A stretch of DNA of 64,000 nucleotides from assembly GCA_963745075.1 (NCBI GenBank), contig CAVUWV010000008.1:128001-192000 (forward strand), read 5' to 3'. Positions 57,887 through 61,856 of the stretch are shown one piece after another. Source of the DNA: Candidatus Hydrogenedentota bacterium (GTDB lineage Bacteria; Hydrogenedentota; Hydrogenedentia; Hydrogenedentales; SLHB01). The position numbers and the translations under genes are program-made. How positions within the stretch are numbered: the first letter of the stretch is position 1; every line of letters begins with the position of its first letter. A model generated the notes under the pieces. The model saw only the letters and a list, made by a program, of their open reading frames with translations. It ran no database searches and was not told the origin of the DNA.

Positions 57887-60310
57887 CTACCGATTGTTCT
57901 GGGGCGGGGCAAGCACGTAGGACTTGCCACGACGAAGGATCAGGATGTCGTCGGCCTTGGTGAGCGTTACCGTCTGCTCTTGGGGATTGAACTCGCCGGC
58001 CGACCATCCATCGAAGACGTCGTCGCCGACGGAATAGGTGCCGTCTCGCGAACGGCCGTCGGGGAGTATGACGCGAATCGAGAAAACAGCGGGTTTGCCC
58101 GGCGTCGCCATGATGCCGCGCAACTCGACTTGGGGTGCGATCTGCCGCATCAACTCTTCGGACATCCCCGTTTGCGCAGGGGCCGTTCCGCTGGACGCAC
58201 CTTGCGCGACGGATTGCGATGCTTCCTTTTCCCGCCCTTGATCTTCGATCGTAAACTCGCGCTCACGCGTCTTCTCTGGGTCCGCTGACTTCAGCAGCAC
58301 ACGGTACGTGCCCGGTTTCAAGTGATACGTCAGTTTTGCTTGCATGCCCGAGGGAATGGACATCATCTCGTTGCCGGTCATGGGGATTTTGAATTCACGG
58401 CCCGCCGCTTGCACCTTGTCCGGCGGTCCGGCATCAACCCACGACGAATCCCCTATCTTCGTATCGAAGAAGAATTCATAGGCATTTGCCATACTCGAAT
58501 TGGGCGCGAGCACCAACATTCGCGCCCCGTGGTTGACGACGGTAACGGTCGTCTCCACATTTGCGGGGTCGCCTTCGATTGCCTTGGATTCGGCGCGTAT
58601 CACGGGATCTGCGAGACGGTATCCCCCCCAGTCGGTAAAGACCCCGGCGAGCCCAAGCGCCATGACGAGGGCAACCACCGGAAACAACGCCCTTGTGTCG
58701 CGCGACGAGAGAAGCGCCATGGCAGAGGCGGTGCCGATCCCACACATGGCCAGGAGGTAGACAACAATTCCCGTTCGCTGGAGCCAGGGACCGCCCTCTC
58801 GCAGGCGTTCCGCGACAATCCCCATTCCATACTCCGACCCGTGAATGTACACCGCCGACAAAAGACCGGCGAACAGCCATATCGCAGCCAGGAACACCCC
58901 GCGGGCCGCGCGTTGGGGCATGAAAGACACGAGTGCCACGAGAATCGCCGTGACCATCGGAAAGGACACGAGCCAGTGGGCATCCGGTTCCTGGGCGGCC
59001 AGGTTGCGGAATAGGTTTAATGGCGTCGCCTGGCCCGTCACCGGCAAGAACAAGACAAAGAGCATCAGCGCCGCGGATACGAAAGCCACCCAGGATTCTG
59101 CGGGCGTGCGAGACGGCGGCCCCGGTTTCGCAAGTCGGCTGAGGAAGGTGCCACGCAACCGGGGCACTTCTTCCGAGGTATTTGCATTCAACGCGCGGAC
59201 CACCATGACCCGGGCTTTCGCGAGGTCGCTCCGCGCTTTAATGCAACGGCTTTCAATTCCGTTGAATTCGTCGCGATCGATCCGCCCGGCTTTCAATCGT
59301 CCCCGCACGTGATCGAGTTGGGCGTCGAGACCATCCGCGTCGCTCGCGTAGTCTTCGGCCAGTTGCTCCAACCGTTCGCGGCAGAACTGCACGTGAGCCC
59401 GGGCGCGCATGCGTTCTCCGTCCGCTTCAGCCCGGCACTCTTCCACGGATCGCTCGGACATGGCGGCGCCGGTTTTCATCCGTTCGGCTTCGCTCAGTTT
59501 TCGTTCAGCCAAGGCCCGCTCTTCCAGCGCCTCGCGTAGTTCGTCAACGTGCGCGTTCAGCAGGGGTTCGCCGCCGTCCGGCTCCGTGGACAGGCTTACG
59601 CGCGGCAGCGATTTTGGGGTCTGGCTCAAGGGGACGTTCTGATGGCCGCCGGCCACATGCGGATCGTCCACGGCGAGCCATCCGCGAAGATTCGTTTGCC
59701 GCCGTTCAAAGTGATCTCGCTTCTTGCGGAGACGGGTCACCTGCTCCTGGTATTGATCGAAGGCAATCTCGCCCACGCGAACGGCCAGGCTCAGTTCGGC
59801 AATTTTTTCTTGAACGGACGCCAACTCGATGGCCGTCTCCATGAGACGCTGTCGCAGTTCCTCCTCGAGATCGGATTGCAGGTTCTTGATTCGGGTGCGG
59901 TATCCGACCAGTTCCGCGCGATTCGCGTCCTTCTTACCCGAGGTCGGGCCCAGTTCGTCCAGCGCCCGAATCTGCCGGTCCACGGCGGCTTGAAGATTGC
60001 ACAGGAGACGCAACGGTTCGAGCACTTCGAACGGCGCGGTACTCTTCTTGCGCTTCCCGTCGTCGGTATCGGCGGCCGGCGAAACCTCGCGTTCGTCGAT
60101 TGGACGGTGTTTGACCTTACGAAGGAACTCGGGGTGGTCCCGGAGATAGAGTTCGGTGGTGTTGGCCGGTATTTCGTCCGGCCGCGGGATGCGGATCTTC
60201 TGTCGACAGGCCACACATTTTCCGGGGCGCCCGAACATGTCTTCGGACACCTTCATTTTTTGCCCGCAAACGCAGTAAATACGCAGTTGCGCTGCCTCGC
60301 TGCTAGGCAT
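57887..60310 (-). CDS. Hypothetical membrane protein: Zn ribbon, coiled coil, multi-TM region, extracytoplasmic beta domains
   Basis: CVCG-x-CVAC near the N-terminus; long E/R/L/A helical region; about six hydrophobic segments; GGGAGG RBS. Confidence 0.8.
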   Translation of the reverse strand: MPSSEAAQLRIYCVCGQKMKVSEDMFGRPGKCVACRQKIRIPRPDEIPANTTELYLRDHPEFLRKVKHRPIDEREVSPAADTDDGKRKKSTAPFEVLEPLRLLCNLQAAVDRQIRALDELGPTSGKKDANRAELVGYRTRIKNLQSDLEEELRQRLMETAIELASVQEKIAELSLAVRVGEIAFDQYQEQVTRLRKKRDHFERRQTNLRGWLAVDDPHVAGGHQNVPLSQTPKSLPRVSLSTEPDGGEPLLNAHVDELREALEERALAERKLSEAERMKTGAAMSERSVEECRAEADGERMRARAHVQFCRERLEQLAEDYASDADGLDAQLDHVRGRLKAGRIDRDEFNGIESRCIKARSDLAKARVMVVRALNANTSEEVPRLRGTFLSRLAKPGPPSRTPAESWVAFVSAALMLFVLFLPVTGQATPLNLFRNLAAQEPDAHWLVSFPMVTAILVALVSFMPQRAARGVFLAAIWLFAGLLSAVYIHGSEYGMGIVAERLREGGPWLQRTGIVVYLLAMCGIGTASAMALLSSRDTRALFPVVALVMALGLAGVFTDWGGYRLADPVIRAESKAIEGDPANVETTVTVVNHGARMLVLAPNSSMANAYEFFFDTKIGDSSWVDAGPPDKVQAAGREFKIPMTGNEMMSIPSGMQAKLTYHLKPGTYRVLLKSADPEKTREREFTIEDQGREKEASQSVAQGASSGTAPAQTGMSEELMRQIAPQVELRGIMATPGKPAVFSIRVILPDGRSRDGTYSVGDDVFDGWSAGEFNPQEQTVTLTKADDILILRRGKSYVLAPPQNNR

Positions 60311-60690
60311 ACTGGCCTCCCTATACCTTCCCCACTGAAGGGTGCCTGATACACGCAAATGATTGCAAGCTTATCGGATAGCGGAAGTTATCCGCGCTTG
60401 CGATTCCGCCGGATGGGTCCGCGGACGGGAATTGCTGCGGCACGGTGCGGTGTGGGGTGGTTAATTCGACCACACCCGGGCAAGAACGAATCCTGGTCAA
60501 CACTGCCCAAAATCACAAAGGCAACAATTCTTCGTCACATATCTTCGTCACATATTGGTCGGTGGCTGACGAGGTCTCGTCGCTTTGACAGGTTTTTGCC
60601 GGTTCAACGCGCAGTTCGCCGGAATGGCCAGAAACGCATAAACGCAACAGACAAAGTAGTTTACAAAGAAGATGATGGCAAACCTCATGT

Positions 60691-60706
60691 TGGCACAACC
60701 ATTGCG
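60691..60706 (+). promoter_or_regulatory. Sigma-54 (-24/-12) promoter
   Basis: TGGCAC-AACCA-TTGCG with exact GG-N10-GC spacing; intergenic, AT-rich tract and repeated motifs upstream. Confidence 0.75.
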
Positions 60707-60716
60707 TTATTCTGAT

Positions 60717-61260
60717 CGTCTCGCTTAGAAGACGGAAAAGCACGGTCCCAGCAAGACCCCCGGATCCCCAGCCGGGGGTTCTTGCTGTCCGGAGCACGAG
60801 TTCACACTGCTGCTCGGACTTGGGGGGCGCACCAATCGGAGGGGAGCGTCCGCACTCCGCGGAAGAGGAACGGACATTGAAGCGGGGAATCGACTGCGTG
60901 GTTTCCTTCGCTGACCAGTCGTGGTTCACCCGGCAACCCCGTGCTGCCTACAACGAGGATTGTCGAACGAGTCGTTAGCAGCACGGACCGAGAGCACCGT
61001 GTCCTGATAACGAGTGGGCGTGCTGGCCAGCTCGGGCCAGGCGCGTCGCAGCACGGGGTTGAGGGTGAATCCGTTCGAATGCGTCGCACTTCCCAATCGC
61101 ACCATTTCCTTCCCCGGCGTTTCTCCCCACGCACCCAGTTTCCAACGCGAGTTCGGGTGCTGAACCCTGAAACAAATCTGAATTTTCGACTGGGAATGTG
61201 ACCAAGACGTGGGATGAGCCGACGCGTTCAAGGGCCGTACGAACCGCCCCGGCACCGGCC
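60717..61260 (+). ncRNA. Candidate structured non-coding RNA or long leader (family unassigned)
   Basis: No credible CDS; consecutive hairpins and a perfect 14-bp helix (60934-60947/61048-61061); starts at the predicted sigma-54 +1. Confidence 0.45.
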
Positions 61261-61361
61261 GCGCTCCAGGGCCTGACGTTGCCTGTGTGACTCCGACCCG
61301 ATACAATGACAGCGGGCTGCGCGGTGGCCCCGCAAAACACGTGTGAAGGCAGGAGGGCGTT

Positions 61362-61856
61362 ATGAACGCGATCGAATCTTTGATGGAGGGGTTTACCCAT
61401 GAATCGGCGGCGACCCGAAAGATCCTGGAGCGGGTGCCGGAGGAACATTTCGGCTGGAAACCCCACGAGAAATCGATGACCTTGGGGCGGCTCGCCTCAC
61501 ATGTCGCCGAGAATGCACAATGGGCGCCGTGGATTCTGACGATGGACGAATTCGTGGTGGAAGAAGGCAGCTACACGCCTTTCGACGCGAAGGATAGGGA
61601 CGACTTGTTGGCCACATTCGATCGCCATGTTAAAGAGGCCCAAAAGGCCTTCGAGGGCGCCGATGAAAGCTCACTCGAAAAGACCTGGCGGATGAAGTGG
61701 GGCGGCGCGGTCGTGGTCGACATGCCCCGGGCAGCGGTCTTGAACATGTTCCTTCTCGGCCATTTGATCCATCATCGCGGGCAGCTTACGGTGTACTTGC
61801 GGATGAAGGATGTGCCGCTCCCGCAACTGTACGGTCCCACCGCCGACGAGCGGTAG
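61362..61856 (+). CDS. DinB-family protein
   Basis: WKPHEKSMTLGRLASH, HLIHHRGQLTVYLRM...P.LYGP; AGGAGG RBS. Confidence 0.92.
   Translation: MNAIESLMEGFTHESAATRKILERVPEEHFGWKPHEKSMTLGRLASHVAENAQWAPWILTMDEFVVEEGSYTPFDAKDRDDLLATFDRHVKEAQKAFEGADESSLEKTWRMKWGGAVVVDMPRAAVLNMFLLGHLIHHRGQLTVYLRMKDVPLPQLYGPTADER

Follow-up and report, generated by a model that had tools for sequence, protein, structure and literature searches.

The window analysed here is a stretch of 64,000 nucleotides from a Candidatus Hydrogenedentota genome (G000; the other Hydrogenedentota genomes compared with it include G001-G005), and within it lies a gap of approximately 640 nt between a predicted promoter and the next gene. 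The sigma-54 (-24/-12) promoter TGGCAC-N5-TTGC was identified on the plus strand at 60691-60705, with a predicted +1 at approximately 60717, and a DinB-family gene (PF05163, E 1e-12) occupies 61362-61856 on the plus strand, both as the first-pass annotation of this DNA had placed them. The gap is made up of 3 unlike parts, namely a predicted small RNA (sRNA) gene at 60717 to ~60790, the remnant of a dead gene at 60824-61096, and a spacer at 61097-61270. Divergent from the sRNA, a hypothetical gene of ~810 aa was identified on the minus strand at 57887-60310 and lies beside the sRNA in 22 of 33 loci (18/26 plus 4/7). No family was found for its product in Pfam above the cut-off, NCBIfam, or Atlas; the protein has an N-terminal CxCG motif, coiled coils, and membrane segments and is restricted to Hydrogenedentota in Atlas (a 55-member cluster), and its gene may share an enhancer region with the sRNA.

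The whole region is single-copy in the 6.8-Mb genome, and the locus had no plasmid or phage match, which rules out a MITE/REP or other mobile repeat. Rfam 15 covariance models gave no match at gathering score over 60200-61800 (best E 0.93) and none in 7 homologous loci, so the element matches no known Rfam family; 6S RNA was also discarded as an identity, with no RF00013 match at the locus and the 6S RNA of the genome sitting on a different contig. None of the 5 small ORFs in the gap had a Pfam match. The first-pass annotation had described the gap as folding almost end to end, and over 60717-61361 (645 nt, 20 shuffles) the fold z was -2.0, slightly beyond the shuffled sequences. By segment, folding beyond chance was confined to 60717-60790 (z -3.9) and 60922-61072 (z -7.2), with 60791-60921 (+0.3), 61073-61270 (+0.06), and 61271-61361 (+1.6) at the shuffled level. 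The helices that had been read by eye were all complementary, and most had mean pairing probabilities of 0.76-1.0 in the ensemble of 60717-61361, with GCACCC/GGGTGC at 0.6, but 60848-52/60871-75 and 61090-99/61187-96 fell to 0.01 and 0.0. The last of these had been likened to a helix in relatives, a comparison that we dropped, the helix being unpopulated in G000 and the arms in relatives being dispersed repeats.

The spacer (61097-61270) lies outside the conserved element, with ~60% gapped identity, a z of 0.06, and a single copy in G000. In G003 and G005, the DNA before dinB (L004:1245-1500 in G003) holds 2 dispersed repeat families with 59 and 54 matches per genome (E<=0.1), one a tandem unit of ~31 nt and the other an arm of ~40 nt in inverted pairs ~120 bp apart; both are REP/MITE-like and rare in G000-G002. 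A sigma-70-like dinB promoter, TTGCCT-17-TACAAT, was the only match of the promoter scan (61279-61307, plus strand), and the block around it is conserved in G003-G005, with 61271-61345 identical at 87 of 88 positions between G003 and G005. TGTGA/TGTGAC repeats flank the -10 box on both sides and may form an operator.

The sRNA is predicted on the plus strand (60717-60790, ~75 nt) from the family alignment, the pair counts, and its fold. It has a weak 5' hairpin at 60717-60734, a strong G-C 3' hairpin at 60750-60786 with a C-rich loop at 60764-60771 and a U-poor tail downstream in G000, and a near-invariant linker, GCACGGTCCC at 60740-60749 on the plus strand (GCACRGYCYC in the family), which is a candidate seed and contains 7 of the 13 invariant columns of a 23-sequence alignment. 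Conservation begins at the predicted +1 (60717) and stops at the hairpin tail, with 72 of 74 bases identical to G003/G005, and in relatives that were detected by searching 61 genomes at the DNA level and by scanning for the exact motif, only the promoter and ~75 nt are shared, usually followed by a T-run.

Counting as members the covariance-model matches that also carry a 3' hairpin and, at constant spacing, a sigma-54 box, we identified the family in 33 of the 135 genomes of the phylum that were searched, spanning 17 genera and 3 families with one copy each. Box and hairpin were both present in 26 of the 30 best covariance-model loci and in 7 of 20 weaker loci; 4 of the best loci had no strict box, one of which (G053) passes a relaxed test, and among the weaker loci 12 had no box and G108 had box and motif without the hairpin. 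Matches in G011 and on 2 other contigs were rejected as chance similarity in coding DNA. Independently of the covariance model, the promoter-plus-motif pattern was found in 30/135 genomes, 27 of them in the organism's own family. Metagenome scans returned 0 and 5 loci, with 3 true members and none carrying the remnant, and no member was found in viral contigs.

Compensatory pairs were identified in both hairpins, with 83.7% of cells paired under the corrected structure and a covariation of 0.253 against 0.135 for shuffled and 0.03-0.13 for slid controls; these pair counts lean toward structure because the family alignment was fitted to the model. In the first covariance model, the 3' hairpin was offset by one column, so the matches of this model rest mostly on sequence; some alignment rows were shifted as well. 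RNAalifold on a MAFFT alignment of the family recovered only 6 pairs. The 3' hairpin occurs in all members, and the U-run after it is clear in most and weak in G000 and some others. The tails of the 4 genomes that carry the remnant are among the U-poorest, and U-poor tails also occur in G016, G024, and the g8 genomes, hence are not unique to the remnant clade. Judged from these comparisons, the sRNA gene at 60717 to ~60790 is almost certainly real, and its conservation in 33 genomes strongly supports the short sRNA that the first-pass annotation had offered as an alternative to a single large RNA. We regard the family with high confidence as a new sigma-54 sRNA family of an ordinary kind.

The exact TGGCAC-N5-TTGC box occurs in 38 copies in the genome and is weak evidence on its own. 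Its constant distance from the RNA in 33 genomes, found with a search model from which the box was absent, points to a sigma-54 promoter at 60691-60705 that is real, as first claimed. The genome encodes RpoN and 28 strong sigma-54 activator domains; the nearest activator gene lies ~69 kb from the sRNA in G000, and none is adjacent. Upstream of the promoter, we identified a predicted upstream activating sequence (60546-60601) of conserved tandem 16-bp dyads with TGAC-type half sites and a 6-nt spacer at ~60567-60582 and ~60586-60601, along with a third, weaker dyad at ~60546-60561, all on the plus strand. TTGAC was present in 20 of 25 sRNA upstream windows against 3.9 in shuffled sequence (these counts omit G003, a near duplicate of G004), and the dyads with 6-nt spacers repeat ~19-22 bp apart. 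An enhancer matrix trained without this locus ranked the sRNA promoter first among 434 sigma-54-like boxes of the genome. Sites of this kind 80-160 bp upstream, together with RpoN and activators in the genome, are in keeping with the class of sigma-54-dependent sRNAs. Between the dyads and the promoter, 60630-60680 is A-tract-rich and AT-rich in most relatives, a possible IHF bend site.

Ranks 3 and 4 of the 434 boxes went to a PilC-like gene and a pilin gene. The sRNA activator may be related to a pilin regulator, as pilus genes follow in the enhancer-matrix ranking, and the half sites are the same; the dyad spacer differs in length, with 5 nt in 19/21 pilin promoters and, among 25 sRNA promoters, 6 nt in 11 and 5 nt in 1. 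The next-best matches of the matrix include a sigma-54-like box at G000 C11 ~141410 (+) with no called gene for 800 bp, possibly a second sRNA, and a box upstream of the PilC-like gene at C21 ~162323 (-). Across the family, pilin promoters (loci L117, L121-L149) carry a strongly conserved dyad, TGACA-N5-TGTCR at ~-124 (19/21 against 0.2 shuffled), which is likely a PilR-type site. In G000, a sigma-54 box precedes each of 3 nearly identical type IV pilin-like genes, at C21 ~93168 (-), C30 ~46829 (+), and C15 ~148569 (+), and the pilin leaders contain a short hairpin preceded by a TTGA..GGAAT motif. PilR acts at pilA promoters according to the available part of PMC6211767.

The gap had been called apparently non-coding, and blastx evidence of a decayed protein gene had been named as counting against that description. 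The description holds for the DNA as it is today and fails for its origin, as blastx, tblastn, and profile searches identified 60824-61096 (minus strand) as the 3' end of a GH65_C-bearing putative glycoside hydrolase gene of ~700 aa. The remnant matched the C-terminus of this gene family with E 4e-11 in blastx, as the sole tblastn match in the genome (E 1e-6), with a protein profile (E 3e-9), and as the sole genome-wide nhmmer match (E 4e-12), and profiles also confirmed it in G004/G005. Weak matches to 60960-61075 in other genomes were all within minus-strand genes of one family. The assignment is firm for 60962-61096 (45 codons) and weaker out to 60824. By sequence similarity, 60824-61096 descends from a minus-strand protein gene, and a live protein gene was rejected, with frame breaks that differ by lineage and with identity at every codon position well away from the 0.45 that live genes show. 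The frame is broken at ~60961 in G000 and elsewhere, by a stop and a 2-nt insertion, in G003-G005.

The intact gene was matched in 29 of 53 other family genomes, G003-G005 not among them and G000 having the fragment only, and Pfam PF03633 (GH65_C) was found on the C-terminus of intact homologues. Two relatives, G013 and G028, have the intact gene in convergent orientation, its end lying just past the sRNA. The neighbour protein of G000 and G003-G005 is 72% identical among these 4 genomes against 60% to G001/G002, which marks the remnant as a trait that arose within a single clade, its carriers being closer to each other than to G001/G002, which keep the gene elsewhere. The ~700-aa family (L074:5197-7389 (-), L080-L091) is uncharacterised, with a GH65_C match at the C-terminus only; the intact gene in G002 adjoins another large putative glycosidase gene, and the G001 copy carries 2 interrupting stops.

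The core of the remnant is identical between G000 and G003/G005 at 125 of 162 positions (77%), against 41-43% at four-fold sites and 45-47% at third positions of the 4 flanking genes. Identities by codon position in the core were 0.9/0.74/0.81-0.83, and for the remnant against G004/G005 they were 0.92/0.67/0.81-0.83, with no codon pattern (P 2e-7); compared with 12 intact genes, the same 45 codons gave a normal coding pattern with the third position at 0.36-0.49 (the set omits L081, whose alignment spans just 9 codons). A second branch, independent of the first, is that between G003 and G005, on which 156 of 161 domain positions were kept compared with 578/808 four-fold sites, 215/253 positions of the adjacent spacer, and 233/287 of the upstream intergenic DNA (domain tests P 5e-5 and 4e-7). 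A short block on the plus strand at 60835-60870 was identical at 33 of 36 positions to G003/G004 and at 30 of 31 between G003 and G005, and its fold was not convincingly conserved. The remnant is very probably under constraint, and on these alignments the constraint is neither neutral nor codon-shaped.

The folded conserved domain lies at 60909-61072 on the plus strand, antisense to the dead gene, where the helix 60925-60947/61048-61069 closes a multibranch loop with no U-run after it. All 3 distinct versions of the domain have an MFE of -84.6 to -87.7 kcal/mol, a stability that none of 300 simulated versions carrying 33 random substitutions retained and that 2 of 400 GC-matched intergenic windows reached. 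The antisense strand of intact genes gave z values of +0.2 to -1.5, with one at -3.0, compared with -6.5 for the remnant, and substitutions favour unpaired sites (P 0.008 against G004 and 0.09 against G005). With only 3 distinct versions, 2 double-sided changes were found in 58 pairs, and the covariation term was positive (unfavourable). We thus find a clade-specific folded relic of a dead convergent gene whose constraint is well supported and whose role we can only infer.

We propose that the locus encodes a sigma-54 pairing sRNA that, in one clade of 4 genomes, likely reads through into an exapted antisense domain, a proposal that we judge equally prone to stand or to fall. The conserved sigma-54 promoter with its tandem enhancer-like dyads would drive the ~75-nt sRNA, an enhancer-binding activator would turn it on upon some signal, and the linker and C-rich loop would pair with G-rich mRNA sites independently of Hfq. 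Ancestrally, the sRNA would have faced the glycoside hydrolase gene; most of that gene would then have been deleted, and the read-through RNA would have gained the long helix, which was kept. Transcription in the clade likely passes the U-poor hairpin into the opposite strand of the dead gene, of which the last ~270 bases are conserved and strongly folded, and the antisense domain would most likely protect the 3' end or direct its processing by nucleases, and thereby control how much short RNA there is or how it matures. Because the constraint is at the nucleotide level and the fold is conserved, a form of ~355 nt in the clade is the likeliest reading of the multibranch domain (60925-61069). 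Taken by itself, the part in which the remnant acts as a plus-strand extension of the sRNA falls just short of an even chance. More tentative and rather doubtful as a whole is the fuller history, in which an ancient sRNA with a sigma-54 promoter ceased to end in a U-run, was transcribed onward into the antisense strand of the convergent gene as that gene was dying, and acquired there ~280 nt of once-coding sequence that became fixed as a new structured RNA domain, so that a 75-nt regulator became an RNA of ~355 nt with a new processing or binding function.

The remnant might instead be a separate minus-strand RNA from the 3' end of the dead gene's mRNA, OxyS-like, that terminates at the hairpin common to both RNAs and serves the short sRNA as an antisense partner in cis. 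Such an RNA would fit a remnant that is exactly the gene's 3' end, as do 34 of 62 such overlaps in Enterobacterales that lie at 3' ends on the coding strand in the available part of PMC8825220, and a weak terminator-like site was identified on the minus strand at 60758-60744. The minus strand folds too (z -3.9 to -4.3), but strand preference, although modest, is for the plus strand (z -7.2; alifold -81.4 against -68.8 for the minus strand), on which the domain changes comprise 7 of wobble type and 1 A-C break compared with 5 and 3 on the minus strand. The promoter scan, further, found no promoter on the minus strand, and the DNA where one would sit is unconserved, and we consider this RNA unlikely.

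It is also improbable, in our view, that the short RNA ends at ~60790, with the remnant retained for insulation or for a function at the DNA level (protein sites, a cruciform, or a block to read-through into dinB), or that the remnant is a recently exchanged or slowly decaying pseudogene with an inverted repeat from template switching. Intergenic DNA in general is better conserved than four-fold sites (81-85% against 71.5%, G003 against G005), inverted repeats fold on both strands, and there is little true covariation; yet the constraint was found on 2 independent branches and exceeds that of adjacent intergenic DNA, and the remnant is single-copy without a plasmid or phage match. An exchange would, moreover, have to be confined to this gap, because both flanking genes are saturated at four-fold sites.

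Turning to the short RNA itself, it is somewhat probable that it acts as a pairing regulator. The C-rich loop may have the anti-Shine-Dalgarno role suggested for it in the first-pass annotation, for which the target scans yielded no support. Seed complements showed no enrichment across 5266 predicted start regions that had been roughly called, and 2 candidate targets were rejected, an aldolase-like gene whose pairing was not conserved in 5/5 orthologues and a pilin leader whose pairing was confined to G000 (the pattern in 1/54 genomes), with a shuffle P of 0.04-0.05 in G000 and 0.06-1.0 elsewhere (five g4 leaders not scored). That no pairing target was found is in line with the short RNA being a protein decoy, for CsrA or a linker-recognising protein, for example. 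CsrA is encoded in 5/5 genomes and Hfq was found in none of 6, and a GGA precedes the linker in many members. Csr/Rsm sponges, however, carry many loop-exposed GGA motifs, and here a single commonly conserved GGA was identified, absent in several members, so that the CsrB/RsmZ sponge class was set aside; the invariant part is the linker and not the GGA, and we hold a decoy to be quite improbable.

Finally, one ncRNA of ~640 nt or a sigma-54 leader controlling dinB, the readings first put forward, is very improbable even with helices that exist as read, a U-poor tail that permits read-through, and dinB on the same strand, because the spacer (61097-61270) is unconserved, folds as by chance, and is filled with repeats in relatives, dinB has its own conserved promoter, 29 of 33 family members have none of what follows the hairpin in G000, and the sRNA in other genomes is followed by unrelated or convergent genes.

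Our literature search found no relevant description of regulatory or non-coding RNA in Hydrogenedentes/Hydrogenedentota, a statement on which supplementary RNA motif tables could bear, and the short sRNA would thus be a regulatory RNA family with a defined promoter, enhancer, and candidate seed in a phylum for which none was found described. The remnant is an example, open to dating, of a coding sequence that died and has since been maintained at the nucleotide level, with a fold gained on the way, and relatives with the intact gene show the earlier state. Our searches on pseudogene exaptation into sRNAs turned up no case of antisense extension. If the read-through proposal is true, the lengthening of an sRNA with antisense sequence from a convergent neighbour would add a route by which large structured RNAs form and could account for the origin of some orphan ones.

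Among known systems, Qrr1-5 of Vibrio (LuxO/sigma-54) and NfeR1 (NtrC) are short sRNAs that end in a terminator and are induced by an activator of the NtrC type, and Qrr needs Hfq. The sRNA described here has no Rfam similarity to them, and Hfq was not found in its hosts. Closer in several respects is Pxr of Myxococcus xanthus, which, in the available parts of PMC5684412 and PMC10217877, likewise has a sigma-54 promoter with an upstream enhancer region in an Hfq-less host, and also a conserved 5' part and a variable 3' stem-loop; its longer forms, Pxr-XL and -L, are processed to the short form. Pxr, as described there, has 3 stem-loops, lies beside pxrR/pxrK, and is myxobacterial, whereas the sRNA here has 2 hairpins, neighbours a hypothetical gene and DinB, and belongs to Hydrogenedentota, so membership in Pxr was rejected on layout and host. 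As a model of processing and of an antisense partner, likened here by description, CJnc190/CJnc180 of Campylobacter jejuni combine an Hfq-less host, an sRNA matured by RNase III, and a cis-antisense RNA, and are not sigma-54-dependent in the available part of PMC8687705. OxyS, STnc240, and EcsR2 are sRNAs born from decayed protein genes (PMC8825220), and in the portion of that report available to us, a fragment of the lost gene, typically its 3' end, was kept as non-coding, as in the remnant. Those RNAs lie on the coding strand and take the place of the gene, whereas the remnant folds better in antisense, and what it would lengthen is an sRNA that is older, independent, and encoded by a convergent neighbour.
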